NCBI RefSeq assembly: GCF_000027125.1
Contig: NC_017626.1
Direction: 5' to 3' (one strand)
Source: Escherichia coli 042
GTDB lineage: Bacteria; Pseudomonadota; Gammaproteobacteria; Enterobacterales; Enterobacteriaceae
Length of the DNA: 64,000 nucleotides
Every line of letters begins with the position of its first letter. Position 1 is the first letter of the stretch. The notes beneath the pieces are model-generated. The model saw only the letters and a program-made list of their open reading frames with translations. It had not been told where the DNA came from and did no database searches. Positions 27,125-63,399 of the stretch are shown one piece after another. A program made the translations under genes and the position numbers.

Positions 27125-27200
27125 GCCCGGATAGCTCAGTCGGTAGAGCAGGGGATTGAAAATCCCCGTGTCCTTGGTTCGATTCCGAGTCCGGGCACCA
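27125..27200 (+). tRNA. pheV: tRNA-Phe (anticodon GAA)
   Basis: GCCCGGATAGCTCAGTCGGTAGAGCAGGGGATTGAAAATCCCCGTGTCCTTGGTTCGATTCCGAGTCCGGGCACCA; 76 nt, CCA end, GAA anticodon in loop. Confidence 0.95.
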
Positions 27201-47877: not shown

Positions 47878-48108
47878 AACTTTATCAGTCCATAAAAATC
47901 AACGGAAGCGCAGATGGTTCACACGTCCATTACCAACTGATTGTTGTCACAACCGGTAACACAAAGGACTGAACGACTGTTTTTAACAGCGGTGTTGCGT
48001 CATCCACCACCGTGAAACAACGCTGTGCAGGGAATCGTCCGCATCCCCATAACGGTCAAACATCGTGGCGTTGACAGAATGACCGACGAAAAGCCAGAAA
48101 GCGCTGAT

Positions 48109-48657
48109 TCACTGAGCTGTAATCAATGTACAGCGCTGTACCGGACGATGGGTAATGGCGGTCACAACCGGTAACCCCAGAGACAATGCGACTGTTTTTA
48201 ACGCAACATACTGACCGGATGTATCACCCCGGGCAACCCGAAAACACCTTTCCACCCGGCATTGTCCGCCAGCACTTATCACCTGCCAGCTATGTTGCAG
48301 TAAATCCACCACTTGCGAACATTGTTCATCAACTGTGACACTGGCTCGCGGGTGACAAATACTCGTCTGGCTGAGCAGCAACAGGCATCGAATTGTTGCT
48401 CCTTCATGTTGTTCCCGCAACCAGCGTAATACCACCGGAGAGGATGGACTGGCAGTGTGATTACGCTCAGTAATACGTTCATGCAGTTGTCGATAAAAGG
48501 AAGTACAGAATGCCTGAATCTGTTGCCCGTTGATGTTTCCTTCAGCCGAATGGAGCGTGAAGTGGACTGCCAGCAGACGCGGCCAGTGGTCCACCGCCTG
48601 CTGAACAAAACGCCGGATGTCTCCCGGCTCTGAAATTAAGGCTTCGGTTATTTGCAC
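48109..48657 (-). CDS. hypothetical protein
   Basis: 182-aa ORF with GTG start at 48657; its 5' end and upstream region are duplicated at 61420..61514. Confidence 0.45.
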   Translation of the reverse strand: MQITEALISEPGDIRRFVQQAVDHWPRLLAVHFTLHSAEGNINGQQIQAFCTSFYRQLHERITERNHTASPSSPVVLRWLREQHEGATIRCLLLLSQTSICHPRASVTVDEQCSQVVDLLQHSWQVISAGGQCRVERCFRVARGDTSGQYVALKTVALSLGLPVVTAITHRPVQRCTLITAQ

Positions 48658-48732
48658 GAAATGTTCCTTTTCAAACCCTGTTGAATTTTGTTAAGCCAGT
48701 GCAGACACAGTAAAGCGCGCATCAACACCTGA
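48641..48732. repeat. left copy of ~95-bp imperfect direct repeat flanking the microcin cluster
   Basis: gcttcggttatttgcac...tgttgaattttgttaagcc.gtgcagacaca...gcgcatcaacacc shared with 61420..61514 (identical blocks of 17, 19 and 11 nt). Confidence 0.7.
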
Positions 48733-49087
48733 AATGATGGTTTTATTCAGAGTATATGACTTTCTTTTACCCGCTCAAGATACGTTCCCTAGCGATATCA
48801 TCAGAAGTTTATGTGTTGTGTATCCATCCATATTAATCTGGTTCCAGTTTTCGGTATATGTCATGAGGAAACATTACAAATATATTCTGGAGCGGAGAAA
48901 GGAAATTGAAACCGTTTCAGAAAGGTTGATACGTGAGGCTGATACGAGAGAATATGAACTATGGCGTCCTGCCCGTCGTTTTTTCTCCATTCTTTTTATT
49001 GTTCTATTAGTTTATATTCATTCACTGATAACAACTATAAAATAAAAATTATGGCTGTTCTGATACCGGAGAAGAAACGTTCATTCT

Positions 49088-49806
49088 ATGGTTACCTCTT
49101 CCTGTTATATAAAAATTTTAAATAACAAGCAAGGGAATATAAATGGAAATAACAAAAAATGCAACATAAAAACAGTCATCAGCGGCTGCTTTTTAATGTT
49201 TACTTTATCATTTTCTATTACCTTTATTCCTGCATTCCTTACAAACAGGCAGGAACTTATATCCAGGGGACTTCTTGTTCCAGCATTATTTCTTGCTGAA
49301 TTTCTAATTCTTGTTCCACTGTATTTTATTTTCTTCCGAAAAAGAGAAGGATTAGGAAGAGGTTCTTTTCGACCGGATGTTTTTTACTCTTTTCTCTTTA
49401 ATAATGATTATTCAGTTATTTGTCCCTTATCTGCTGGCAGTGAGGAAAACGGAAGAATGGATGATCTCGCAAATGTCTTTTTCTGAGGCCATTTTATGTT
49501 TCTTCTGTACTTCTATGTTCCTGTATATGAAGAGATTGTATTTCGAGGGTGTTTTTTTAATTCTTTATAATTCTGGTTTAATGACAATATTTACATCTCT
49601 GCCATTGTAACATCAGTCATATTCTCTGCATTGCATCTACAATATACTGACTTTCGTACATTTTTTATGCTCTTTTTAGTATCGTTAGTTCTTATTAGCG
49701 CACAAATAAAGTCGAATGGTCTGTTAATGCCCATATTACTTCACATGGCGATGAATGCAGTCATAGCAGGAATACAATATCTAGCTTATATCAGTTATTC
49801 CCATTA
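49088..49806 (+). pseudogene. possible CPBP (CAAX-protease/Abi)-family membrane protein, apparently frameshifted
   Basis: Three successive overlapping frames of hydrophobic ORFs; the last (49617..49806) reads ...FSALHLQYTDF...LLHMAMNAVIAG, resembling CPBP motifs 2 and 3; motif 1 not clearly seen. Confidence 0.3.
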
Positions 49807-50002
49807 ACAGAGCATTTTCTGTTACAATCTCATATGATAAAAATTAAACGGACTAGCATTGTTACTATGCGGTATGCATAAAATGATAAACGTTCGGAGG
49901 AGCCTAACTTAAACCATTACATAGGCATCATTAACAATATAAGGTTTAATTTCCACTCCCCGCAGACGAAGAAGCACTTGATGTACATCTGCCGGATCCA
50001 AA

Positions 50003-50224
50003 CTAGGATGATAATCCTATACCTGAGGGAGACATGGAGGGACTAACCGTCGCAGTCGTTGCCCATGAATGTACTTTATCACCTATATAAGCCCCTGCAA
50101 TAGAACCAAATCCCGGGCTAATAAACGTACCTGCAAGTGAACCAATAGCAATTAATTCTGCCTGCCCGTCATTCCCGTCACCTCCAGATATTTGTTTTAT
50201 TTCATTTTCAGATAGTTTTCTCAT
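50003..50224 (-). CDS. mcmA: microcin M precursor (class IIb siderophore-microcin)
   Basis: MRKLSENEIKQISGG double-glycine leader and Ser-rich C-terminus ...MSPSGIGLSS; recognised as microcin M precursor; ATG at 50224 with aaggtg RBS; the track ORF extends in-frame upstream from a TTG. Confidence 0.8.
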   Translation of the reverse strand: MRKLSENEIKQISGGDGNDGQAELIAIGSLAGTFISPGFGSIAGAYIGDKVHSWATTATVSPSMSPSGIGLSS

Positions 50225-50285
50225 TTCAACACCTTCGCTATAAAATTTGTGAAGAAGTAAAAATTCACGTTTAACCACAACGATA

Positions 50286-50441
50286 AAAATGTAACTACAA
50301 GTGATAAAAAAACATATATAGATTAAAAAAATTATATCTATAGTAATAACTAAGATATAATGACACCGGAATATAAAAGAACAGATAATTGATAACAAAA
50401 GCAATCACTGTTATTTTTATATCCTTCTTAACCTCCCCCAT
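50286..50441 (-). CDS. candidate microcin M immunity peptide (51 aa, hydrophobic)
   Basis: Hand-translated ORF MGEVKKDIKITVIAFVINYLFFYIPVSLYLSYYYRYNFFNLYMFFYHL between mchF and mcmA with ggag RBS; below the track cutoff; the known immunity protein length was not verified. Confidence 0.35.
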
Positions 50442-50476
50442 CGACAAAACTCCTTACAAAGTTACACCAGTGGATT

Positions 50477-52573
50477 TTAAATAGAAATAATCCTGTCAAC
50501 AGTTCTCAACGTAGTTTCTCTGTGTGCAATAATCACCCGGGTGATATTCATTTTTTTTATGGCAGCATTCACGAAACGTTCACTTTCTGTATCAAGAGAA
50601 CTTGTAGCCTCATCCATAAATAATATTCCAGGTTTCCGGTATAAAGCTCGGGCAATGAATATACGCTGTTTTTGACCGCCGGAAAGACCTTCCCCCAGTT
50701 CACCTATTAACGTTTCATACCCCATTGGCATTTTCATTATCACATCATGAATATGACTTGCTCTGGCACATTCTGTCATCCATTCGTCGTCTGTTTCTTC
50801 TGCAAACCCACAGATATTTTCACGAATTGATCCTGAAAATAGCCGGTCGTCCTGCATAACACAGGCTATCATACGGTGATAATTATTTATTCCAAGTTGA
50901 CGTATATCCGTGCCATTAACCAGTACTTTTCCACTATCTGGTTCAAACAGTCCACATAATACTTTCATTAATGTGGTTTTTCCGGCACCGGAGGCACCAG
51001 TTATAGCCACACTTTCTCCCGGAGCCACAGACAAATTCAGACCACTGAATACCTGTGCTGACTGGCTGTCATACCGGTAGCTTAAATCAGTGGTTTCCAG
51101 TGAAACCGGGCTCATGTCAGCAACGATTTCAATTTCCGGTTTCTTTTCTTCCTTTTCATGTAGTGCAATATCTGCAATGCGCTCATTATGCAGACTCATT
51201 ATTCTCAGTTGAAGAAGAAAACTGGTCAGCGAAGCAACCCGATCCGAAAACTGCCCACGAAAAGAACCAAATGCCACAAACATCCCTATTGTCATCTGAT
51301 TATCGATCACAAGGCTTGCACCCAGCCATAAAATCGCCACCTGATCACAGGCGGCAACAAAAGTATTTATCCCCCCGAAGAGCAAATCCATCTTGGTTAA
51401 CTTAATACCTGAATTGATCGCATCTATTTTCAGGTTAAGCCAGTGTGTTCCCCGGATCCCAGCCATACCTTGGATTTTTACCGTGGCAATACCATACAGG
51501 CTTTCCATAAAATAGGAGCTGGCCCGGGCCCCCCTGACAAGAGTTTCTTCCGATATTTGCCGGTAATAGCCGTATGTCACCAGACGAATAAGAACGTAAA
51601 CCATGGTAAAACCGAGCACTATCCAGGTAAGATATCCTCCATATAACAGCATCATCACAAAAACACCCACAACCATAATACTGTCCATGATTGCCCCAAC
51701 CACACAGGTGGTAAAGGTGGCCCTCAAAGTGTCAAGGGAGCCAAAACGCGACTGGATATCACCTAATTTACGGCGTTCAAAAAACGCCAGCGGCAGTCTG
51801 AGAAGATGGTTAAACAGACCCGACTGCCACTGTATATTGATGAGCGTGCTCATAACCAGTGAGGACCATGCACGCAGCATACTCACCGCGGCCCTGAGCA
51901 ATATAAAGAACATCAGGCCAGCAGAAATAAGCGTCAGCAGCCCTCTGTCCCCCGCCGGAATCGCATGATCCATAACCAGCTGAGTCCCCACCGGCATTAC
52001 CAGATTGATTGCTTCAATTACAACTGACAGACAGAAAATTTTCGCCAGTGTTCTTTTAATACCGTAAATACTGTTAATCAGTGAACGGAGACTTATGCGG
52101 ATCTGCTGGGTTTCCGCCAGGAATTCACTTCCAGGCCAGACCTCAAGTGCAATGCCCGTAAAATACCGGCTCATTTCCTCCCGACCGAGATATCTTCTGC
52201 CTCTGGCCGGATCATGCAGTACATAACGGTTACGCTTTACGCTGACCAGCACGACAAAGTGACTGAAATCCCAGTGGAGAATACACGGCATTTTGAGGGC
52301 ACCAAGTTCATCCAGCTCCAGTGAAAGAGCCCGGGTGACCATCCCCAGCTGCTCCGCTATTCCATTGATTCCTGCAAGGTTTGCTCCACGGGCCGAGAGA
52401 TTAAACTTCCGGCGAAGAGATATCAGGTCAATATTCTTACCAAAATGACCGCATATCATTGCCAGGCAGGCCAGTCCACATTCAGCGGTCTCCGTCTGAT
52501 GAATAACCGGAACACGACGTCGCCAGCGCATATCAAGCTGATTTATAATTTGTCTGAAACTCCCGTTAGTCAT
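50477..52573 (-). CDS. mchF: microcin ABC exporter with N-terminal C39 peptidase domain (CvaB homolog)
   Basis: Track ORF 50477..52591; from [42 protein letters not shown] closely matches CvaB/MchF; Walker [10 protein letters not shown], signature LSGGQ. Confidence 0.85.
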
Positions 52574-53840
52574 TGAGCGGTCCTGTTGCACTGTGTTTCA
52601 TGTCATAGAAAGGAGAAAGCATCCACTGGTAAATACGCCTTTTTTCCAGAAATAGTGTACTTTCGGCTTTCATTCCATTTTCCAGAGGGAGGTATTTTTC
52701 GTCATATCTGATAATCTGCTTTTCAGGCATCGCAATGACTTTATACCAGGGAACAGAGGCGCCCGGCGTATTCTGTGGTGCACCCTTATAGGTCAACATT
52801 TCCTGTGTTGACGCAGGAGTCCTGGATATAGTTTTAACCGTAGCAGAGAACTGCCCAAATTTTTCTGCCGGAAAGGCTTCATAACGAATATTCACTTTGT
52901 CACCAGCCGAAATATAAGGAACAGCATCATTTGGGACCCAGAGAATAAGATAATAGTTTTCAATGTTCTCAGGAATAACCTGCAGAAGGCTGTCTCCGGT
53001 ATTGACCATTTGCCCGACAGTGACACTCAGGGAGTCAACTTTCCCGTCAGTCAACGCCCGGATAATAATTTCGCCCTCCACATCAGTGTTAACCAGTTCT
53101 TTCTGTAACTCGTACCGTTGCAGTTCCATCTGGTAGATACGGTTATCAAAATCTGCAGCCTGAGTCTGAATCTGACTCTCCAGAGTGGTTATCTGCAGGG
53201 CATTCTGTTCGTTCTGTCCGCTCAGGCTGAGAAGATTGTTTTGTTGCTGATAATATAATGCCACCTGGTTAGTTAACTGATCTTTATTAATCAGCCCTTT
53301 TGCCTGATAGTTTCTGTAATTCTCCATATTGTTTTTCATTATTTTTATCCCTTCCTCTGCACGCTGTATAATATCTGATGAGCGACGAAACGCATCTGTG
53401 TATTGCAGACGTTGTTTTTCCAGGGTATCTAACGTTATTTTTTTACTTTCTTCCAGACGGGAAATAATGTTGTCCACACGAACCAGCTGATTTTCTATAT
53501 CCCGCCGATGATTATCAGTGACAATACCACTACGTGTACTTTTACTGATGTCAATCAGATAAACAGGATCCCCTTTTTTTATCAACTGCCCTTCATGAAC
53601 AAATTGCCTGACAACAAATCCCTGTACACCTGAATATATATTGACAGCTCTTGGCCAGGTTGTGACCTCACCACTGACATTAACACGGCGGCTATAGGTA
53701 CCAACAATAATGAACATCAGAAATGCCGTAATAAACACAATGCTTCCCAGCATGATTAACCATAGTGGTATTCCGGGAAGTAATATTGCCCGTCCCTGCC
53801 ACTTCATTTTTCTGTTTTCTAAAGCATCCTGACGAAACAA
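52566..53840 (-). CDS. mchE: microcin secretion membrane fusion protein (CvaA/HlyD family)
   Basis: 424 aa; [40 protein letters not shown] matches CvaA/MchE N-terminus; overlaps mchF start. Confidence 0.85.
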
Positions 53841-53992
53841 AATAGCTCCTCTTACTCACACTTTTCCTGTAATACCTTCACTGATTAACCGAAACGCTAT
53901 AATCAAAGCCAGAAAATACAGAGTCCTGTCAAAATAGTATCAGCGATGCATTTACCCCGTAATTTACAATTATCTCTGTATCTTCAGAGGTA

Positions 53993-54445
53993 CTACGTTT
54001 TATGCAGCCGCTCAGGGATGTATGTCACAATTTTCTTTCGCCTGCTTAACCATCGTACTTCTCCTTCCCCCCATGGCTGAAGCTGTATGAGATAGTCAAT
54101 AACTTTTCGACCAAAGCCTGGTTTACAACAGAAATCCAGGATCCAGATCCTTCCATCTTCATTCCATTCAGACGGATGCAACCTGAATTCTGGATCCCTG
54201 AGCAGGCGCGCTTCCGTATCAGCCTCAAGATATGCCCAGGTTATATACGCCAGTGGAAAACCTCGTGAATCAAACAGGAATTTAATCTGATTATGCTGTA
54301 TCGCATATTCAGTCCAGTATTGAATGGTTAACACCGGATACAGACTGTAATTACGATTGTAGAGCATACAACTGACCGCAAAACCTATCTGTTCATAAAC
54401 AGTCCATTCATCTTTTCCTCTGATGGTTTCCCTTATATAAGACAT
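53993..54445 (-). CDS. mchD: microcin maturation protein (MchD/MceI-like)
   Basis: 150-aa ORF between mchC and mchE in the canonical mchCDEF order. Confidence 0.55.
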   Translation of the reverse strand: MSYIRETIRGKDEWTVYEQIGFAVSCMLYNRNYSLYPVLTIQYWTEYAIQHNQIKFLFDSRGFPLAYITWAYLEADTEARLLRDPEFRLHPSEWNEDGRIWILDFCCKPGFGRKVIDYLIQLQPWGEGEVRWLSRRKKIVTYIPERLHKT

Positions 54446-54470
54446 GATTACTATTTCCCTTATATATTTA

Positions 54471-56021
54471 TTACACTGTGTTTCTTATCGGTTCAAGATA
54501 TCCAAATGCATCTCTGGAAAACTTAAGCATAAAATTTTTCATATCAGAAATTGCTTCTTGTAAAAAAAGGGGATCATCGCCATGATTATCCAGCAGGATG
54601 GCAATTTTTTCGCACATATTCTCTTTCCTCAGCTCTTCCCTGGGTTGCAGCCTTTTCATGGTATGATGTTCAATTTCTTTCAGGAGTAATGAAGCATTTA
54701 TCTGACGTCTGGTACTGCCTTGCGTCAGCCAGTGGATAGTCTGGGAAAAACACTGTTGTGCAACGGTGAAATAAACATCATTCTTGATGCTACTATTCAG
54801 TGCCTGCTTTTGATTATGCCTATGATGGATTAGCGTCACAACCAACTTTTGCAATGGTGAACCATCCTGATTGACAATATCTTGGGCATGTGATTTCTCG
54901 CAGTATTTATTGAGTAATGCAACAAAACTGTTAACCAGTTGTTTCAATATATCAGGTATCTCTTTTTGTGTTATAAATTCTCCAGGAATACCCAACAGTT
55001 CTAGATAACAGTAATAACATGCTTCATGAAAAGTTTTCTGAAATATCTCCTCAACCTTCAAACGGGCTGCAAGAGTGAAGTCAGGGTCAAACATATATTT
55101 TCCGATATACAAGCAGAGATCAGACAGCCCTTGCATAAGTACCATCGGTTCTTTTGCCAGTTCAGCTAATCTTAGTTTATACCCAAAATCAGCTGGGGAA
55201 TCTCCCGGAAACAGACAACTGAGTCCGTTAAAATCCATTAATCTGCCATCCATTGCAATATTAGAAGGAGAAGTTGTCAATCTCAGGAAACGTGTTCGAC
55301 AAAATGCCATTTGCCAGGCCTCACGACGTGCCAGTTCACATAATCCCTCAATGCAATAAATCCGGGGATCAGTTCGTGCTTCAGCATCAATTTCTTCCGG
55401 TGGTACAGGTAGATATCCTGGCAGCTTGTGGATCACAGATCTAACCCGACAGGCATCGTGAATTAACTGACTGGAATACTCCGGTTTTACTTGGAAGTAT
55501 GGTGCCCGTTCAAAATGCGCCGGGCGAACAACAGGCTCACGTACCAACAGGGCTCTTCGTGATTTCATACCGGAGCGCTCAAATGCCTTTTCAGTATAGA
55601 GATCTGTAAGTAAAACCGCCCGAACCCGCACAGCACTATAAGGTAATATTTGAGCCAGTACTTCTCCCCACAAAGCCTCATATATTGCATGAACAGCGCC
55701 GAGTGCACCATTAGAATGACGTTCGTCAGTACCTTCACCAACCAACGGATTACTTCCTATTCCTTTAACCTGGTAGTTACCATCAAACCCACAACGTGCA
55801 CCACCTCCATTACGCTGAATACCACTGCCACCATAGCGCTCTGCATGGAACACTTTGGCAGAAGCCGTACTGTCAGGATCGATAATATAACTGCAGGCAT
55901 TTTGCAGCTCGCCTGGATTTCTGACATCCTCTGCACACCAGATTAATGAGGACTTGATCTGCCTGGCAGTGAAAGGCACCAGGTTTTCATTCAGTTCAGA
56001 AAGTGAACACTGATGACTCAT
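54471..56021 (-). CDS. mchC: microcin maturation protein (MchC/MceJ-like)
   Basis: 516-aa ORF immediately downstream of mchB, size and position as for MchC. Confidence 0.55.
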   Translation of the reverse strand: MSHQCSLSELNENLVPFTARQIKSSLIWCAEDVRNPGELQNACSYIIDPDSTASAKVFHAERYGGSGIQRNGGGARCGFDGNYQVKGIGSNPLVGEGTDERHSNGALGAVHAIYEALWGEVLAQILPYSAVRVRAVLLTDLYTEKAFERSGMKSRRALLVREPVVRPAHFERAPYFQVKPEYSSQLIHDACRVRSVIHKLPGYLPVPPEEIDAEARTDPRIYCIEGLCELARREAWQMAFCRTRFLRLTTSPSNIAMDGRLMDFNGLSCLFPGDSPADFGYKLRLAELAKEPMVLMQGLSDLCLYIGKYMFDPDFTLAARLKVEEIFQKTFHEACYYCYLELLGIPGEFITQKEIPDILKQLVNSFVALLNKYCEKSHAQDIVNQDGSPLQKLVVTLIHHRHNQKQALNSSIKNDVYFTVAQQCFSQTIHWLTQGSTRRQINASLLLKEIEHHTMKRLQPREELRKENMCEKIAILLDNHGDDPLFLQEAISDMKNFMLKFSRDAFGYLEPIRNTV

Positions 56022-56291
56022 CTGGCAGTATTCTCCGTTTTAATTTTCATAAAAGAGTGTTCATAAAAGAGCAAGTAAGTGTCCTGACAGCTTCTTCCTT
56101 ATTACAGTAAAACTCTATTAATTACACATAAATTAATAATTATTTATCAACGACTGTAAATCATATCTTCATCAGTAAAGTGTTGAACATAAAAACACAC
56201 TTATAAATGGATCTTCTATCTGCTTTAAACGAAAGGGATATATTTTACAGGCACTATCGAAAAAGTGCCTGTAAAATAAATAAAATTATAA

Positions 56292-56519
56292 TTAGCTACC
56301 GCCACCAGCAGAAGAACTGGCACTACCACTTCCCACGGTCGAGCCAATTGCTGTTGTCAAACCGGCAGATACGGCTCCAACTACAACCCCAAGTGGACCA
56401 CCAGGTATTCCGGCGAGAGCTCCAACAATAGCTGCAGCACCTGCGGCATTAGCTGAAGTCGCTGGCGCACCTCCCGCCCCGGAAATATATCTTAACTGTG
56501 ATTCTGTTATTTCTCGCAT
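56292..56519 (-). CDS. mchB: microcin H47 precursor
   Basis: MREITESQLRYISGAGGAPATSANAAGAAAIVGALAGIPGGPLGVVVGAVSAGLTTAIGSTVGSGSASSSAGGGS; recognised as MchB; track ORF starts 22 codons upstream. Confidence 0.85.
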   Translation of the reverse strand: MREITESQLRYISGAGGAPATSANAAGAAAIVGALAGIPGGPLGVVVGAVSAGLTTAIGSTVGSGSASSSAGGGS

Positions 56520-56535
56520 ATAAACTCCATCATAT

Positions 56536-56745
56536 TTAACTTCCGTTTTTCCAGCCTGACCAGACCAGAATCTTTCGAATCCCATGAATCAGCTCAATAA
56601 AACCAAGAAATATTATAAAGCTTAGAAAAACGTCAACATAAGAATTCCCTTCGCCAACAATCCGAAGGGATGAAAGTGAAACCAATAAGATAGTAAGAGG
56701 TAAACTAAATATAGCCGTCAATTGGTACAGTTTTTTATAACTCAT
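56536..56745 (-). CDS. mchI: microcin H47 immunity protein
   Basis: 69-aa hydrophobic ORF MSYKKLYQLTAIFSLPLTILLVSLSSLRIVGEG... directly upstream of mchB. Confidence 0.8.
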   Translation of the reverse strand: MSYKKLYQLTAIFSLPLTILLVSLSSLRIVGEGNSYVDVFLSFIIFLGFIELIHGIRKILVWSGWKNGS

Positions 56746-57156
56746 TAATACCTACCTGTTGCTTTATTTTCATTATGAAAAGTTACCAAATCTTAGCGCT
56801 TCAGTCAGGGGAGTCAGGTCATCGATAAAGAATATTCCAGTAGAGTGGCGCTCATGATCAAAGACAACAGCAAAGTTGATGACAGTGCTGACCGACTGTC
56901 ATTTACAGTAACCCTGTTTGTAGCAAATTCCATCTTACCAGACCTCACCCAGACAAAGACAAAAGAGAATGATTGTTATTTACTTTTCAAAAAAAGTGTC
57001 ATATTGTCCATATAAAGTCAAGAGGTATTTTACGTTATGTAACTGATGCAATTGTTAGTCAGGATCTCATGGTTGTCGCTCATGTATAACCTGAGACTTG
57101 AACGTACACTAATAGCACTGACGGTCATACATCGGGAAATGTGAGGAGGCATAAGA

Positions 57157-57402
57157 ATGAATTGTGATAATAATCACAGAAATGAAGAATTCATTGTTAC
57201 CTTTGATAAAGGCAACAAGCAAGACAATTCAAGACGAAAACACGATAATTTTCCTATAGAGGTAGAATCCTCCGTAGAGCTGGAGACACACTGTATCACA
57301 AATAATAAGTCGGCTTCCGGTATAGTAACACATGACTATGATGCCGATTATATTTGTGGTTGTGGTGAAATTATGTGTCCTGGTTGCGGTCATGACCTAT
57401 AA
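57157..57402 (+). CDS. small Cys-motif peptide (81 aa), function unknown
   Basis: ORF ending ...YICGCGEIMCPGCGHDL (CxC-x5-CPGC); located between the mchXIB and I47 modules. Confidence 0.3.
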   Translation: MNCDNNHRNEEFIVTFDKGNKQDNSRRKHDNFPIEVESSVELETHCITNNKSASGIVTHDYDADYICGCGEIMCPGCGHDL

Positions 57403-57556
57403 CAAACATATTTGCAAACTGATACCTGATCAGGTACAAGCCTGTTGATTATTATGCTGAATATTCCAGTTATCAATCCATCGATATGAACATTAACAAG
57501 AAAAAACATATATTGTTTATCTGAATATTTATCGATGGAAAACCAAAGGGGAAAGT

Positions 57557-57991
57557 ATGTATCTTACGAAAAAGATTATAATAAGTATGATGTTTATATT
57601 ACCATCTGCTGCATTTTCATCAGATCCACCTCCCCTTCAACAATCGTTAGAAAAAACAACCTATTTTTCTATAGGTATGAATGGGTTTATAGGCTATCAG
57701 AGCGAAGGGGAAAAATTATACACACACATTCTTACATTAGATAATCCCGAAGAGATATTTAAAAATATAATAAAAAATAGAAAGTCAACTAAGGAGTCTA
57801 AAATTTATGCTGCTTGTGGGCTATATTATTTAAACGTAGAAAATATAGAGTCATTGTTTAATGAAAATGATAAACAAGAATATGTGTCTGTCTTAAGAGG
57901 GGATATTTTAACAAAAATAAAACTGAATGATATTCTGAATTCTGTGATAATAAATGGTTGCAACACCAAATTAATATCTGAACATAAATGA
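57557..57991 (+). CDS. secreted protein upstream of microcin I47 gene (possible immunity/accessory protein)
   Basis: 144 aa with signal peptide MYLTKKIIISMMFILPSAAFS; precedes the I47 precursor by 16 nt; AT-rich codon usage. Confidence 0.4.
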   Translation: MYLTKKIIISMMFILPSAAFSSDPPPLQQSLEKTTYFSIGMNGFIGYQSEGEKLYTHILTLDNPEEIFKNIIKNRKSTKESKIYAACGLYYLNVENIESLFNENDKQEYVSVLRGDILTKIKLNDILNSVIINGCNTKLISEHK

Positions 57992-58007
57992 GCAGGAGGT
58001 TTTTAAA

Positions 58008-58241
58008 ATGAGAGAAATATCAGATAACATGCTTGATTCCGTGAAAGGAGGGATGAATCTTAATGGATTACCTGCTTCTACTAATGTAATAGATCTACGT
58101 GGAAAAGATATGGGAACATATATTGATGCTAATGGAGCATGCTGGGCTCCGGATACTCCATCCATCATCATGTATCCGGGGGGAAGTGGACCTTCTTATA
58201 GTATGAGTAGTTCCACATCCAGTGCAAACAGCGGCAGTTAA
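58008..58241 (+). CDS. mchS2: microcin I47 precursor
   Basis: MREISDNMLDSVKGG double-glycine leader, Ser-rich C-terminus ...SMSSSTSSANSGS. Confidence 0.6.
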   Translation: MREISDNMLDSVKGGMNLNGLPASTNVIDLRGKDMGTYIDANGACWAPDTPSIIMYPGGSGPSYSMSSSTSSANSGS

Positions 58242-58529
58242 ATAAATACCATCCGGCTATGCCGGAGGGTATTTATGATGTGCCTGTAAGACTCTACTTC
58301 TGTCGTCTCTTTACAAAGGCATATGATCTGACATTTTGTACCAGACATCTTAACGAGAGCCTTTTCATATATTACTTACATACGTGAAATCTACAGTATA
58401 AAGCAAAAATTTTATTAAACCTGTTTTATATTTATCATCAATACAACAGATTTAATTCCGGAAAGTCACTCATCACCCCTTGAATGAACGTCATTTGATG
58501 TATTATTCTTACACTTGGATTAATTTAAG

Positions 58530-59804
58530 ATGATACCTATGAAAAACTATCTTTTCCAGACTCCCGAAGATATTTGTGTACAGTTAAAAAAAATGACACA
58601 TCCTGTCACAATAAGAACAACAGATATTGCTAATTTCTGGCACTATCTTGAGTCAGCAACTCTTCCGGTGATCACAAAAAGCACCACTACAGAAAATCGG
58701 GAGGTTACATTTCTGTGGCGCTCAGAGAAAGCAGTGCAAGGCGTATATCTTCGCCTGAATCGTGTTACAGATAAAAAAGATGTCAAAAAAGGACTAATGA
58801 CTCATATCCCTTCGACAGATATCTGGATGCTGACACTGGTGTTACCAGCTTCATATCGGGGCTCATACTCATTTATAGAAATTCCCACAGATATGACACA
58901 AAAAGACATATTTCAACTAGGAAGTCGCTTCTCTCCATTACCCGGTAAATCTGATCCATTTAACAAAACAGCAGAAATAAATATACGAGGATTCGGAGAA
59001 TCAGTCCTTTCTCTTGATATGGCTCCTGAACAAAAGGAATGGGATGATACTTCCCATAAATGTACAGGTATTCTTTCAACATTACATTCCTTTGTTGCAG
59101 GATATCAACGCCGGATTCGTTTATATTTTCCCCAGAATCCAACATCAGTACCTCTTGGATTACTTGTGTTACCTGATGCTGAAATATGGTTTGACCGGAT
59201 GGATATTACCCGGGCATTAGATATGGCCATTACCACTGGTCATATTGCGCCAATGGCAATTATGGGGATAGACAATATTAATGAATCTGATCGTATGAAT
59301 ATACTGGGAGGCAATAAAGAACTTATCTTTGATATAGCGGAAAATCTGATACCCCAGTTATACAGAGACTACCCGAATATCGTATGGGCTGGTCGTTCTA
59401 ATACTATACTGGCCGGTCAGAGCCTCGGTGGAGTGACAGCACTGATGGCAGCTATATATGCGTCGACAACATTTGGTACAATCATTAGCCACTCACCTTC
59501 AATGTGGTGGAACCCTGACCAGGGCAGCCCGATTTTGTTTACTGAGAATGATATCTCCTGGGTAAGTGAGCAGATACTTTCAGCGCCTCCGAAAGATGTA
59601 AATATCCAACTTGGAGTCGGTTCTTTAGAAGGTACAACCGTCTCACATGTTCAGCGGTTGCATCAGTCGTTAATCGCAGCAGGTTTGGAAAGTAACCTCA
59701 CTGTCTATGCCGGTGGTCATGATTATGCCTGGTGGCGCGGAGCAATTATTGATGCATTAGCAAATTATAATTGCAGGAAGATATCAGATAATAACTTTGT
59801 GTAA
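58530..59804 (+). CDS. mchS1: enterobactin/salmochelin esterase (IroD/Fes-like)
   Basis: 424 aa; alpha/beta-hydrolase GQSLGG nucleophile motif; position next to the IroB-like glycosyltransferase. Confidence 0.65.
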   Translation: MIPMKNYLFQTPEDICVQLKKMTHPVTIRTTDIANFWHYLESATLPVITKSTTTENREVTFLWRSEKAVQGVYLRLNRVTDKKDVKKGLMTHIPSTDIWMLTLVLPASYRGSYSFIEIPTDMTQKDIFQLGSRFSPLPGKSDPFNKTAEINIRGFGESVLSLDMAPEQKEWDDTSHKCTGILSTLHSFVAGYQRRIRLYFPQNPTSVPLGLLVLPDAEIWFDRMDITRALDMAITTGHIAPMAIMGIDNINESDRMNILGGNKELIFDIAENLIPQLYRDYPNIVWAGRSNTILAGQSLGGVTALMAAIYASTTFGTIISHSPSMWWNPDQGSPILFTENDISWVSEQILSAPPKDVNIQLGVGSLEGTTVSHVQRLHQSLIAAGLESNLTVYAGGHDYAWWRGAIIDALANYNCRKISDNNFV

Positions 59805-59952
59805 GCGATTATCTCATCGTACCGATAACGCTTTCTGCAACATTATAACGGGAGACATACTCATTTATTTAGTTATGTCCTTCATCATATAAGTGAAGGA
59901 CATTCTATTACTCATGACATTTTTCGTCGATAATATCAGCAATACTATACAA

Positions 59953-61071
59953 TTATTTCCCGTTGTTTTTTAATTTTCTCATCAAAACCTCTGCGATCTC
60001 TGCAGGACTGGGTTGTTCAGCCATTTCAGCGGCTACCTGATCTGAACAGAAGCGTAGTGAATCATCATAAAGCAGGCGATTTACCAAATCACTGGTCAGT
60101 CCATGCTTGTCCGGAATAATCCCACACCCACGCATCGCAACAATTTCTGCATTAACAGAGCGATCTGCACCTTCGCCAAACACAATCTGTGGTATCCCAC
60201 TATACAACGCTGTCAGGGTATTACCTGCGCCACCATGATGAATAAATCCATCAGCTCCATTAAGGAATACACCCATAGGTATCCAGTCAACCAGACGTAC
60301 ATTTGATGGTAGTTTTCGTAATCCAGTACGAGCATTTATTGCAAGTTGCAAAATGATATCAGCATCAACTTCATTTGCAGAATCCATAACCCATGAAATC
60401 AGCTCCAGACCATCAACCATTGGTTTTACAGTGCCAAGGCTGATGAGTAAACGTTTTCGATCAGAATCCCTGTCCCACCATGTTTCCTTTACAGCACCTC
60501 CGTTATAAGGAATATATCTCATTGAGATAACCGGTTCTTCAGCATTTTTAAGAATGCTCATACTTGGGGGAGCAACATCAATCCATGCTAAATCACATAG
60601 TGGACCGCTGACTCCATGCCGCCTGTAAGCATTGCTTAAAGAACGGTTTAACATCTGAATATGGGCAGATGTATGCGCGAATCCAACAGCCAGCATCACT
60701 GAAGGAATTCTATATTTAGCAGCAACCAATGGGCCTGCCGGACCAAGCGGGGGATAGACTATTAAATCTGGCCTCCATTTTCCTGCAAAATCGATGAGGT
60801 TATCTGCCATTTCATCGCTAAAAAAAGAGAAATGACCAATAATATTACTTTTTTTCCTCAACTCTTCCTGATGGCGATATCCAGCCTCTGAATCTAAACT
60901 TGGAACTGCATCAAAAACAACCAGTCCAGCTTCTGCTGCTTTATTCGCGAATTTGCCAGCACTACTAATTACTACATCATGTCCGATTACACGAAAGGCC
61001 TGAGCCAGAGAAATCAATGGGTATAACAAACCGTACAGCGGTGGGCCAATAAAAAGAATACGTTTTCGCAT
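59953..61071 (-). CDS. mchA: enterobactin C-glucosyltransferase (IroB-like GT1)
   Basis: 372 aa; GT1 signature HHGGAGNTLTALYSGIPQIVFGEGADRSVNAEIV. Confidence 0.7.
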   Translation of the reverse strand: MRKRILFIGPPLYGLLYPLISLAQAFRVIGHDVVISSAGKFANKAAEAGLVVFDAVPSLDSEAGYRHQEELRKKSNIIGHFSFFSDEMADNLIDFAGKWRPDLIVYPPLGPAGPLVAAKYRIPSVMLAVGFAHTSAHIQMLNRSLSNAYRRHGVSGPLCDLAWIDVAPPSMSILKNAEEPVISMRYIPYNGGAVKETWWDRDSDRKRLLISLGTVKPMVDGLELISWVMDSANEVDADIILQLAINARTGLRKLPSNVRLVDWIPMGVFLNGADGFIHHGGAGNTLTALYSGIPQIVFGEGADRSVNAEIVAMRGCGIIPDKHGLTSDLVNRLLYDDSLRFCSDQVAAEMAEQPSPAEIAEVLMRKLKNNGK

Positions 61072-61419
61072 TAAAAAAGTCCGTCTTCTGCTTACCTGTT
61101 TATTTTTCTATCGCTAAGAAAACATAATTAATATTATTTTTATGTGAGCTTATGCACAAAAATAACCAAGTATCTTATCTTCTGGTAGAGATACAGGATA
61201 CAGTTTGTAGGAGCTTTCTTTTTTGAACAATGAGTTACAGGACAGTTATGCCAACCTACCGGAATCAGTATCACACCAATAAATGACAGATCATACCTGA
61301 AATTTGAATTAACAGGCATCATGAATGTCAATAGTCTAAGCGGTTACTACTTACATCGCTTGCATAAATACTAAACACTGACTAGAAAAGTATTGGATAA
61401 CCCCGTCACTAAAAGTAAC

Positions 61420-61514
61420 GCTTCGGTTATTTGCACAGAATACGACTCCTTCAGACTCTGTTGAATTTTGTTAAGCCGGTGCAGACACACGGGAAGGTGC
61501 GCATCAACACCGGT
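61420..61514. repeat. right copy of ~95-bp imperfect direct repeat (contains truncated 5' end of a 48109..48657-like gene)
   Basis: Shares gcttcggttatttgcac / tgttgaattttgttaagcc / gtgcagacaca / gcgcatcaacacc blocks with 48641..48732; the minus-strand reading VQITEA... here stops after 19 codons. Confidence 0.7.
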
Positions 61515-61705
61515 GTAATGCCAGTTATAAACAATGTGAATGGAATGACGAATCAGTCAGGAAAGAGCTACAACCTGCTGGCTGACCGGAGAGGGTCAGC
61601 AGGAAAATGAACGGTAATGTCGCCAGCACCAGGGACAGGGCTGATTTCCGCAATACCAGCGCCGGCATTTTGCACATTGCCAGCGTACCGGCATCACAAC
61701 ACGTT

Positions 61706-61942
61706 TCATGCTGCTGCTCCTCGTGATTCCTCAATTCGCTGCTGCATCCACTGCTCCACTTCACTTTTGTACCAGCGGCTGCTGCGGCCCAGCTTGATGG
61801 GTTTCGGGAAATGGCCTTCACTGATCAGCTTGTAAAACCATTTATCTGTCATACCGGTGAAACTGGTGATGTAGTTCATGTCGATCAGGGGATCGTCGGC
61901 ACGCAGCAACACGCAGTCGTGGCCTGTCATTGAGGTCAACAT
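61706..61942 (-). CDS. alpA: AlpA-family phage/island transcriptional regulator (excisionase-like HTH)
   Basis: ...MTDKWFYKLISEGHFPKPIKLGRSSRWYKSEVEQWMQQR matches the AlpA/Vis HTH family; true start probably internal. Confidence 0.6.
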   Translation of the reverse strand: MLTSMTGHDCVLLRADDPLIDMNYITSFTGMTDKWFYKLISEGHFPKPIKLGRSSRWYKSEVEQWMQQRIEESRGAAA

Positions 61943-62010
61943 GGTCAGAATATCCTCTGTGAGATTTATGAAGGTTGTGCGAATGCGGGGAAAGGTGCTG
62001 AGCCGTATTC

Positions 62011-62832: not shown

Positions 62833-63399
62833 TCAGAAGTGAGGCTTACGAGGACGCCCTGCAGCAGGACGTTCAGGAACTTCATTGCAGCCGTAGGCAC
62901 ACAGCCCGTCTTTTTGTTCTTCTTTCGCCAGATAATGCAGGGCACCGCGAATATTATCGATGCTTTCAGGATCGTTGTGGCGCACAGGAATGTTGATGTT
63001 GTATGCATAATGCGGCTGATATGTACAGCGGTGCGCCGAACCACAGTTATACGTAATTGCCTGCCAGCATTCCGCTATCCGCTCCGCAAAGGGATATATT
63101 TTTTTAACCCTCTGACGATCGATCCAGAAAACGACATGCGCATGAAAACCATGATCAGCCGTCCATTCAATCACCCAGAAGAAACCAACGATATTTTCAA
63201 ATTGTTCCACCTGCTCCAGCAGCATACGCAACTGCAATTCAAGCCAGCGATGATCAGGTTGTAAGAAATCAGGCGTATCTTTCCTGTAGAAGAAATCCAT
63301 GCGTAAGGCCCGCAGGCAGGAATAGCGTGCCATCATTTGATTGATGTGATTGTCAAGTAAAGCGGTAAAAAACCAGTTTGGTGTGTAAGATTTAGGCAT
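62833..63399 (-). CDS. inovirus Gp2-family (YfjJ/YagK-like) protein
   Basis: 188-aa ORF with ...WVIEWTADHGFHAHVVFWIDRQ... block resembling Gp2-family proteins of CP4-type islands (from memory). Confidence 0.45.
   Translation of the reverse strand: MPKSYTPNWFFTALLDNHINQMMARYSCLRALRMDFFYRKDTPDFLQPDHRWLELQLRMLLEQVEQFENIVGFFWVIEWTADHGFHAHVVFWIDRQRVKKIYPFAERIAECWQAITYNCGSAHRCTYQPHYAYNINIPVRHNDPESIDNIRGALHYLAKEEQKDGLCAYGCNEVPERPAAGRPRKPHF

Follow-up and report, generated by a model that had tools for sequence, protein, structure and literature searches.

The two imperfect direct repeats that bracket the microcin genes in this DNA of Escherichia coli 042 are the known attachment sites, attL and attR, of the 12.6-kb microcin H47 genomic island of E. 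coli, which has already been published (Poey et al. 2006, AAC 50:1411; Azpiroz, Bascuas and Lavina 2011, PMC3191183; Azpiroz and Lavina 2017, PMC5426353). Their detection in the 64,000-nucleotide stretch analysed here (contig NC_017626.1, hereafter the window) is a rediscovery of known mobile-element boundaries from raw sequence. Judged from sequence comparison, the two copies are very probably (roughly 85%) hybrid attachment junctions of the island, formed by recombination between an island-borne site, attI, and a chromosomal site, attC, within short blocks of identity. Added here to the published record are a tally of the empty-site types across 5,426 genomes, a second target allele (strains A12 and ECSC054), a longer paralogous homology in undeleted island variants and, for the H47-type island, a deletion of about 390 nt at its left end.

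By strict local alignment the core of the repeat covers positions 48623-48736 and 61402-61520, with 98 of 121 columns identical (81%). The alignment score of 118 lies about 40 standard deviations above those of 200 shuffles searched against 20 kb (mean 23.3, SD 2.3, maximum 31), and the next-best match elsewhere in the window scores only 29, which rules out a chance likeness of AT-rich upstream sequences. The direct repeat that a preliminary description of the window had placed at 48641-48732 and 61420-61514 is therefore real. Under lenient scoring it grows to 144 and 148 nt with 115 of 151 columns identical (76.2%), and the copies share four blocks of perfect identity, of 17, 20, 11 and 13 nt on the plus strand of the window. 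Three blocks of 17, 19 and 11 nt had been reported before; the first and the last stand, the middle one measures 20 nt, and the 13-nt block is additional. GC content falls at both repeats. The repeat features, which carry no strand, are as follows:

48615..48758, left repeat copy, 144 nt, corresponding to the published attR; core 48623-48736 (alignment, comparison with empty sites, and lengths and identity in PMC3191183)
48641..48657, identity block IV, 17 nt, GCTTCGGTTATTTGCAC; partner at 61420-61436
48678..48697, identity block III, 20 nt, CTGTTGAATTTTGTTAAGCC; partner at 61458-61477
48699..48709, identity block II, 11 nt, GTGCAGACACA; partner at 61479-61489
48717..48729, identity block I, 13 nt, GCGCATCAACACC; partner at 61499-61511
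61395..61542, right repeat copy, 148 nt, corresponding to the published attL; core 61402-61520 (alignment and comparison with empty sites)

The published attL (148 bp) and attR (144 bp) form an imperfect direct repeat, about 76% identical, with perfect-identity stretches of 13, 11, 20 and 17 bp, in that order; they delimit an island of 12,635 bp and were interpreted as parts of an attL/attR/attC system (PMC3191183). The repeats of the window show no essential difference from the published sites. Relative to the published sequence AJ009631 the window is inverted, so that the published attR is the left copy of the window and the order of the blocks is reversed. The four published primers out1, out2, in1 and in2 all match exactly, at 48519-48541, 49162-49184, 61203-61225 and 61593-61614, and a crossover made in silico in block III yields 316 nt, the size of the published 316-bp out excision amplicon. 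The window thus agrees with the published island of E. coli H47 and 042 in repeat lengths, 76% identity, block sizes, primer sites and this amplicon, and also in a size of about 12.6 kb, the genes mchA to mchF with truncated microcin M genes, the lack of a recombinase gene, and the occurrence of hybrid attC sites elsewhere in the species.

The target of integration is the 5' end and upstream region of a protein-coding gene, which is present in truncated duplicate at the other end of the island, upstream of mchA:

48109..48657, minus strand, 182-aa gene with a GTG start at 48657; its 5' end and upstream region are the integration target
61371..61436, minus strand, truncated duplicate of the start of the 182-aa gene: VQITEA, 15 unrelated codons and a stop
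61706..61942, minus strand, AlpA-family (excisionase-like HTH) gene, 78 aa (PF05930, E 2.6e-10; PHROG excisionase families)

On the minus strand, block IV holds the GTG start and first codons of the 182-aa gene. The preliminary description correctly had the left copy span this start and the region upstream of it, to which the minus strand can now be added, and correctly found the same first six codons (VQITEA) in the right copy; the reading frame there comprises 21 codons in all, rather than ending after 19. The repeated part is the gene start and its upstream leader. Its designation as a promoter segment could not be verified, as promoter prediction gave no sigma-70-like site in the left or the right copy.

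The 182-aa protein matches no family of Pfam, NCBIfam or PHROG. Some of its alleles are labelled in RefSeq as 'UCP030791 family putative phage-derived protein', and the RefSeq label 'YagK/YfjJ domain' carried by some alleles was not reproduced, there being no match in these three collections. Nor is the protein similar to the neighbouring Rep/G2P-like protein of the YagK/YfjJ family, whose gene lies at 62833-63399 in the same module and which has homologues in K-12. In empty sites the AlpA-family gene lies directly upstream of the 182-aa gene. The H47 island is nested within a larger island at tRNA-Phe, where a tyrosine integrase adjoins the tRNA.

The cargo between the repeats (48759..61394, unstranded, 12,636 nt) has a GC content of about 40%, versus about 52% in the flanks. 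Its gene content was taken from the RefSeq annotation of an identical genome, NZ_AP022298.1:

48734-49045, plus strand, N-terminally truncated ORF
about 49196-49807, plus strand, frameshifted CPBP gene (pseudogene)
50003-50224, minus strand, mcmA, truncated
50477-52573, minus strand, mchF
52566-53840, minus strand, mchE
53993-54445, minus strand, mchD
54471-56021, minus strand, mchC
56292-56519, minus strand, mchB
56536-56745, minus strand, mchI
57557-57991, plus strand, mchS3
58530-59804, plus strand, mchS1, esterase-like gene
59953-61071, minus strand, mchA, glycosyltransferase gene

This annotation bears out the earlier statement that the two copies enclose every microcin gene as well as the frameshifted CPBP gene, and it contains no integrase, excisionase or other recombinase gene between the repeats. 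Since the island carries siderophore-microcin genes relevant to competition in the gut, for example in probiotic and pathogenic E. coli, its mode of spread is of some practical interest.

Sites without the island were sought in 5,426 complete E. coli genomes, which were queried with junctions excised in silico. A one-piece match was obtained in 1,194 genomes, and the 316-nt junction expected from a crossover in block III (type III) was matched at an identity of at least 99% in about 175 of the 5,426, many of them at 100%. Single-copy sites lacking the microcin genes, the configuration proposed earlier as a check, are therefore abundant in related genomes. The type III sites consist of a single hybrid copy and correspond to an excision made in silico within the 20-nt block, with left-copy sequence up to this block and right-copy sequence after it; block III is the switch point in most natural empty sites. 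Conversely, comparison with these sites shows that the left copy in the window is of chromosomal type until the 20-nt block and of island type beyond it, while the right copy is of island type until the block and chromosomal beyond it. In strain Sanji about 570 nt across the junction are the same as in the in-silico-excised window, 204 nt on the left side and 366 nt on the right, beyond which the sequences diverge. A 1.6-kb junction, with a best match of 93.8%, had pointed to the absence of any recently vacated or progenitor site; this view was dropped given the 100% matches of the 316-nt junction in many genomes. Insertion of the microcin module by recombination at the repeated segment, as first suggested from the window, is supported by this abundance of hybrid empty sites. 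All type III sites may nevertheless be progenitors that were never occupied, rather than products of excision.

The other types are rare. One natural type IV site was found, in BEN5202, which differs from type III at 9 linked bases and has an island-type 20-nt segment between blocks IV and III. One type II site, in TOE17, differs from type III at a single base, which limits its weight. Both share the gene context of the occupied site in strain 97-3250, to which their left flanks are 98.2% (BEN5202) and 99.6% (TOE17) identical. No type I site was found among the complete E. coli genomes, and a circular or tandem attI junction was absent from all 5,426. For the right-hand allele of the O157/C51 type, a search yielded no natural empty counterpart. 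A scan of 100,044 species-representative genomes with an invariant 17-mer gave 14 matches, about the number expected by chance; just one was real, an ordinary empty site in an Enterobacteriaceae MAG, and the scan revealed neither other cargo at the target site nor a 'donor' allele.

Occupied sites show the island in more than one target allele. Occupied genomes number 155, besides decayed forms, and natural carriers include H47, 042 and BEC1-S17-ESBL-09. Across three contexts the island interior is 99.2-99.6% identical, and the flanks form a mosaic of 65-100% identity. Strain A12 carries the same island in a different attC allele, of which ECSC054 provides the natural empty counterpart, and in A12 the flank allele changes exactly at blocks III-II. 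The end of the island bears a diverged paralogue, of about 190 nt, of the intergenic region between the AlpA-family gene and the 182-aa gene. In the window it has been trimmed by the deletion of about 390 nt, and in undeleted island variants the homology is about 70 nt longer (z 8-12). The island-side halves of the repeats are a diverged paralogue of the target and not a fresh copy. The alternative offered in the preliminary description, duplication of the segment, is not supported: the repeats are not a recent duplication, because the copies share only 76-81% of their bases, against 99-100% identity of the intervening island from genome to genome.

These observations suggest the following process. 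The end of the island would carry its own diverged copy (attI) of a chromosomal segment (attC), the latter comprising about the first 12 codons of the 182-aa gene and the intergenic region up to the AlpA-family gene. Reciprocal recombination between attI and attC, with the crossover in one of the perfect-identity stretches, would insert the island and create two hybrid, imperfect repeats, and recombination between these repeats would delete the island and leave a single hybrid copy. Since no recombinase is annotated in the island, we infer that the process is guided by homology and not by a dedicated recombinase. Published evidence for excision and integration consists of PCR detection, with no product recovered in vivo; the signal remained in every recombination mutant tested, and the authors concede PCR chimeras as its possible source (PMC5426353). 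The comparative data presented here do not depend on PCR and, at the sequence level, indirectly support more than one natural recombination event in the repeats, given the exact empty sites, the type IV scar, the second target allele, and an island much more conserved than its flanks.

The strongest alternative, which is possible although we consider it rather unlikely, is that the repeats date from a single ancient insertion and survive as relics, inactive today. The island would then spread within larger segments by RecA-dependent exchange in flanking paralogous genes, and the published signals would be PCR chimeras. A signal that is the same in all mutants is what template switching predicts, as is the missing in vivo product; the lack of an attI junction in any assembly also fits this alternative. 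The variable length of the identity tracts around the sites, as in Sanji, and the mosaic state of other flanks are likewise typical of homologous exchange; the A12 configuration and the mosaic flanks may indeed stem from RecA-dependent exchange in flanking paralogous genes after horizontal transfer. However, the BEN5202 site, with its linked differences in the gene context of an occupied site, is hard to obtain unless the repeats recombined in vivo, and the position of the allele switch in A12, exactly at blocks III-II, also speaks against inactive relics.

Less likely still is a dedicated site-specific recombinase acting at a fixed core in blocks III-II, in which case the repeats would be classical att sites and the extra homology incidental. 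Candidates would be the tyrosine integrase beside tRNA-Phe in the same larger island, for which the AlpA-family protein would act as directionality factor, and other host enzymes; the AlpA/excisionase-family gene directly adjoins the site, and host-provided site-specific recombination was proposed in the 2011 paper (PMC3191183). The window-type and A12-type sites, the two best-resolved occupied forms, both fit a crossover inside CCGGTGCAGACACA, which is block II with the three bases before it. Yet knock-outs of all 16 site-specific recombinases of K-12 left the PCR signal unchanged (PMC5426353), four crossover positions were detected by PCR (PMC3191183), the published excision amplicons being spread over the blocks at 1:7:10:2, and a natural type IV site exists. 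The two copies have no dyad-symmetric core in common, only a weak 11-nt inverted repeat being present in the right copy alone, the island itself has no annotated recombinase gene, and about 190 nt of island-borne paralogous intergenic homology is atypical of core-type sites.

It is improbable that integration, instead of being a random short-homology exchange, proceeds through a single fixed crossover inside CCGGTGCAGACACA with a non-canonical host function as catalyst, such as a Rep/G2P-like protein of the YagK/YfjJ family. If it were, sites of the TOE17 type (type II) would be the real unoccupied progenitors, and types III and IV secondary deletions. A chance AT-rich resemblance, or a simple target-site duplication by transposition-like insertion, can be dismissed: the segment is upstream and non-coding-like and its copies flank inserted DNA in direct orientation, but nothing else in the window approaches their similarity, copies of 114-148 nt that are 19-24% diverged bracket an island with 99-100% identity between genomes, their island-side halves are paralogous to the target, and the empty sites are hybrids of both copies.

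Movement without a recombinase of its own has been reported for few islands, the H47 island among them. Two other elements, as described in PMC5426353, are similar: the prophage-like element phiSE14 of Salmonella Enteritidis, with 308-bp repeats that are 98% identical, and a transposon of Streptococcus pneumoniae, with repeats of about 1.2 kb. Like the H47 island, both lack a cognate recombinase and have extended direct repeats, several crossover regions, and a RecA-independent loss detected by PCR. Unlike in the H47 island, where no stretch of perfect identity exceeds 20 nt and in vivo products have not been recovered, their repeats are far longer and near-identical, and element-free clones have been isolated (PMC5426353).

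Islands and prophages integrated at tRNA genes, such as the surrounding tRNA-Phe island, differ from the H47 island in having short perfect core repeats and their own tyrosine integrase. The H47 repeats are long and imperfect, and the island targets a protein-coding gene at its 5' end and contains no integrase. Classical tyrosine-integrase att sites were accordingly rejected as a description of the H47 repeats, which are 76-81% identical in four separate blocks, with no internal integrase and no common dyad core. The microcin E492 island of Klebsiella is another classical integrase-type island at a tRNA gene. Elements of this kind resemble the H47 island in their direct repeats at both ends and in the occurrence of empty sites elsewhere, and in both cases the element brings along a copy of the target gene's end, so that the gene is intact after insertion.

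Exact pairwise alignment of the two sequences flanking the microcin region (48641-61514), previously described as a direct repeat of about 95 bp, confirmed that related copies in the same orientation are present at both places. In a strict local alignment, 48623-48736 and 61402-61520 are identical in 98 of 121 columns (81%), and the score of 118 lies far above those obtained with 200 shuffles of the left copy against 20 kb (mean 23.3, SD 2.3, maximum 31); the next-best match to the left copy in the whole window, on both strands, scores 29. Under lenient scoring, the copies comprise 48615-48758 (144 nt) and 61395-61542 (148 nt), with 76.2% identity. The perfect blocks, numbered IV to I from left to right, and the gene at the left copy are as follows.

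48641-48657 and 61420-61436, 17-nt perfect block (IV)
48678-48697 and 61458-61477, 20-nt perfect block (III)
48699-48709 and 61479-61489, 11-nt perfect block (II)
48717-48729 and 61499-61511, 13-nt perfect block (I)
48109-48657, minus strand, 182-aa ORF with GTG start at 48657

The preliminary description had listed blocks of 17, 19 and 11 nt; the first and last are accurate, the middle one is 20 nt long, and the 13-nt block was overlooked. It rightly assigned the same first six codons (VQITEA) to the right copy, where the GTG and five further codons run into unrelated sequence with a stop after 21 codons, not 19. Family searches detected no family for the 182-aa protein. A 42-nt direct repeat (47946-47987 and 48161-48202; 81% identical, 215 nt apart) is located around the 3' end of this gene and the downstream intergenic region. 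The right copy and the empty sites, having a single copy, carry an 11-nt imperfect inverted repeat absent from the left copy (61471-61481, TTAAGCCGGTG; 61508-61518, CACCGGTGTAA; 26 nt apart).

Judged by its sequence, the repeat pair is the attL/attR of the "H47 genomic island" and is already known; the repeats were first mentioned by Poey et al. 2006, the structure was described directly by Azpiroz, Bascuas and Lavina 2011 (PMC3191183), and a follow-up study was published by Azpiroz and Lavina 2017 (PMC5426353). Published attL and attR are 148 and 144 bp long, 76% identical, and share stretches of 13, 11, 20 and 17 bp (PMC3191183); the repeat lengths, identity and four stretches in the window agree with these values. 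Since the window is oriented opposite to AJ009631, the published attR is its left copy. The distance between the copies is 12,636 nt, compared with 12,635 bp for the published island (PMC3191183), and the four published primers match the window exactly.

48519-48541, primer out2, exact match
49162-49184, primer in2, exact match
61203-61225, primer in1, exact match
61593-61614, primer out1, exact match

With an in-silico crossover in the 20-nt block, the predicted out1/out2 product is exactly 316 bp. All sequence-level features by which membership of the H47 island may be judged were tested, and all were found. A transposition-type duplication was considered for the repeat pair and rejected. 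What the present analysis adds is modest: a tally of empty-site types across 5,426 genomes, the new examples BEN5202 and TOE17, the target allele of A12 and ECSC054, the longer stretch of paralogous homology, and the deletion at the left end of the island.

A search of 5,426 complete E. coli genomes for single-copy sites without microcin genes found the in-silico excised 1.6-kb junction as one uninterrupted piece in 1,194 of them. The tight 316-nt junction is present at no less than 99% identity in about 175 genomes (176 records), many at 100%, among them three strains named in 2017 (PMC5426353), Sanji, Santai and PCN033. Each of four aligned empty sites is identical to the left copy as far as the 20-nt block and follows the right copy beyond. 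Sanji matches the in-silico-excised window perfectly over 48494-48697 and 61478-61843, with 83-97% identity outside, and such exact junctions show a natural presence/absence polymorphism precisely at the repeat. These exact single-copy hybrids support the earlier proposal that the microcin module was inserted by recombination at the repeat. The reciprocal island-borne junction (attI) was never found in one piece in the complete-genome search. Each of the four excision products that could arise, named after the crossover block, was searched for with a diagnostic 260-nt query, with the following counts in complete genomes.

Type IV, exactly one perfect match, BEN5202, with 9 linked differences from type III
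Type III, about 175 genomes
Type II, one perfect match, TOE17, with 1 difference from type III
Type I, none

BEN5202 and TOE17 have the gene context of the occupied site of STEC 97-3250 (dGTPase, H-NS, ProQ/FinO, 182-aa gene, att site, AlpA), and some of their proteins are identical to the 97-3250 counterparts. Flank identities to 97-3250 are as follows.

TOE17 (type II), left 99.6% over 2.5 kb, right 96.3%
BEN5202 (type IV), left 98.2% over 4.8 kb, right 94.8%
Sanji (type III), left 94%, right 86-91%

The perfect type III sites examined (Sanji, W2-5, H9Ecoli; stretch 1-2500, extract coordinates) lie about 4 kb from a sul2/aph(3'')-Ib/aph(6)-Id resistance region with IS1, so these strains have in common a form of the surrounding island that bears resistance genes.

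Conservation is much higher in the island than around it, its interior being 99.2-99.6% identical across three contexts (the window, A12 and 97-3250), while the flanks of occupied sites form a mosaic ranging from unrelated to 100% identical. The left copy of A12 is chromosomal-type through block III and island-type past block II; its right copy is island-type across blocks III-II, beyond which it follows a different chromosomal allele, whose natural empty counterpart is ECSC054. Two readings fit A12: the island integrated a second time, crossing over inside CCGGTGCAGACACA, or flanks were exchanged up to exactly that point.

The two copies are reciprocal hybrids of chromosomal and island-borne versions of one segment. 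In O157:H7 and strain C51, decayed island variants occupy the same site, and in them the left copy's island-borne half is about 70 nt longer. The added stretch shows significant homology to the intergenic DNA of the chromosome (z 8-12 against shuffles), and after it come about 380 nt including the 5' end of a 152-aa gene. The island thus holds not a short core but a diverged paralogue of the target, about 190 nt long and comprising the gene start and upstream region. In the window, a deletion of about 390 nt directly after CACCTGAA (about 48734) took the 5' end of the 152-aa gene and the 70 nt or so of extra att homology; because of it, the ORF at 48734-49045 (plus strand), the 3' part of the gene intact in O157:H7 and C51, is annotated as N-terminally truncated. 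At the right junction of the decayed variants, about 75 nt (GGAATGTATTAACGCCAAGATTGTTAGCCGTTACGCC...) after block IV are neither island-type nor of the usual chromosomal type (stretch at 5703-5900 in the O157:H7 9.1_Anguil locus and 4780-4900 in the C51 locus, extract coordinates); none of the 5,426 genomes has an empty site with this allele.

Several complete E. coli genomes match region 48000-62000 at 100% identity, among them BEC1-S17-ESBL-09 (NZ_AP022298.1), whose RefSeq annotation places between the repeats the N-terminally truncated ORF, a frameshifted CPBP gene, truncated mcmA, mchF, an HlyD-family gene (mchE), mchD, mchC, mchB, mchI, mchS3, an alpha/beta-hydrolase gene (mchS1) and a glycosyltransferase gene (mchA). 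The island has no recombinase gene, none being annotated there. At the left repeat the GC content drops from about 52% to about 36%, and just past the right one it is back at about 55%. The microcin M structural gene mcmA (50003-50224, minus strand) is truncated and annotated as a 73-aa "colicin V family bacteriocin"; an intact 92-aa mcmA occupies the same place in A12, 97-3250 and C51, which makes the window island H47-type, not H47+M-type.

The island would be inserted and lost by recombination within the identity blocks, presumably catalysed by host functions. Excision and integration were seen by PCR only, in recA-deficient cells; the signal also appeared in mutants covering all 16 K-12 site-specific recombinases, RecET and 23 other recombination genes. 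The authors, who recovered no product in vivo, considered PCR chimeras not completely excludable (PMC5426353). The literature searched yielded no post-2017 paper resolving the mechanism. Much of the mosaic can be accounted for by RecA-dependent exchange in paralogous genes of the flanks following horizontal transfer. An empty site that is island-type from block IV to block III, as in BEN5202, is hard to explain unless the two repeats recombined in a cell. A fixed-site recombinase acting at the repeats is possible but not favoured, since crossovers fall at several positions, no dyad common to both copies was found as a recombinase core, and the homology is long and paralogous. The H47 island resembles integrase-type islands in restoring the end of its target gene, but their defining short perfect core and cognate integrase are both missing.

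On the minus strand, empty sites carry in order a Rep/G2P-like YagK/YfjJ-family gene, a 191-aa hypothetical gene, a 78-aa AlpA-family gene (PF05930, E 2.6e-10; also PHROG excisionase families), about 266 nt of intergenic sequence, the 182-aa gene and an ECs1377-family gene. This target module occurs in several copies in E. coli, at as many as 9 places in one genome. In the window, the following gene lies two genes upstream of the att site.

62833-63399, minus strand, 188-aa Rep/G2P-like gene (PF23343, E 3e-5; YagK_YfjJ_C PF11726, E 7e-4)

The 2017 search for the excision function (PMC5426353) did not include knock-outs of its K-12 homologues, yagK and yfjJ. Related genomes have a second gene, of the "inovirus Gp2 family", further to the right. 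That a non-canonical host function, for example a YagK/YfjJ Rep-like protein, catalyses crossover at one fixed position is improbable, though if true it would be of real interest.

About 21 kb into a large genomic island, which follows, in order, core genes, tRNA-Phe and a tyrosine integrase gene (about 27.4-28.7 kb onward), lies the nested microcin island.

27125-27200, tRNA-Phe

Cargo of the tRNA-Phe island includes phosphoethanolamine transferase, TerB/ATPase/helicase, IbrB-like and PAPS-reductase genes and T6SS gene fragments. Upstream of the tRNA, the window shows an 11-nt offset from the otherwise identical NZ_AP022298.1.
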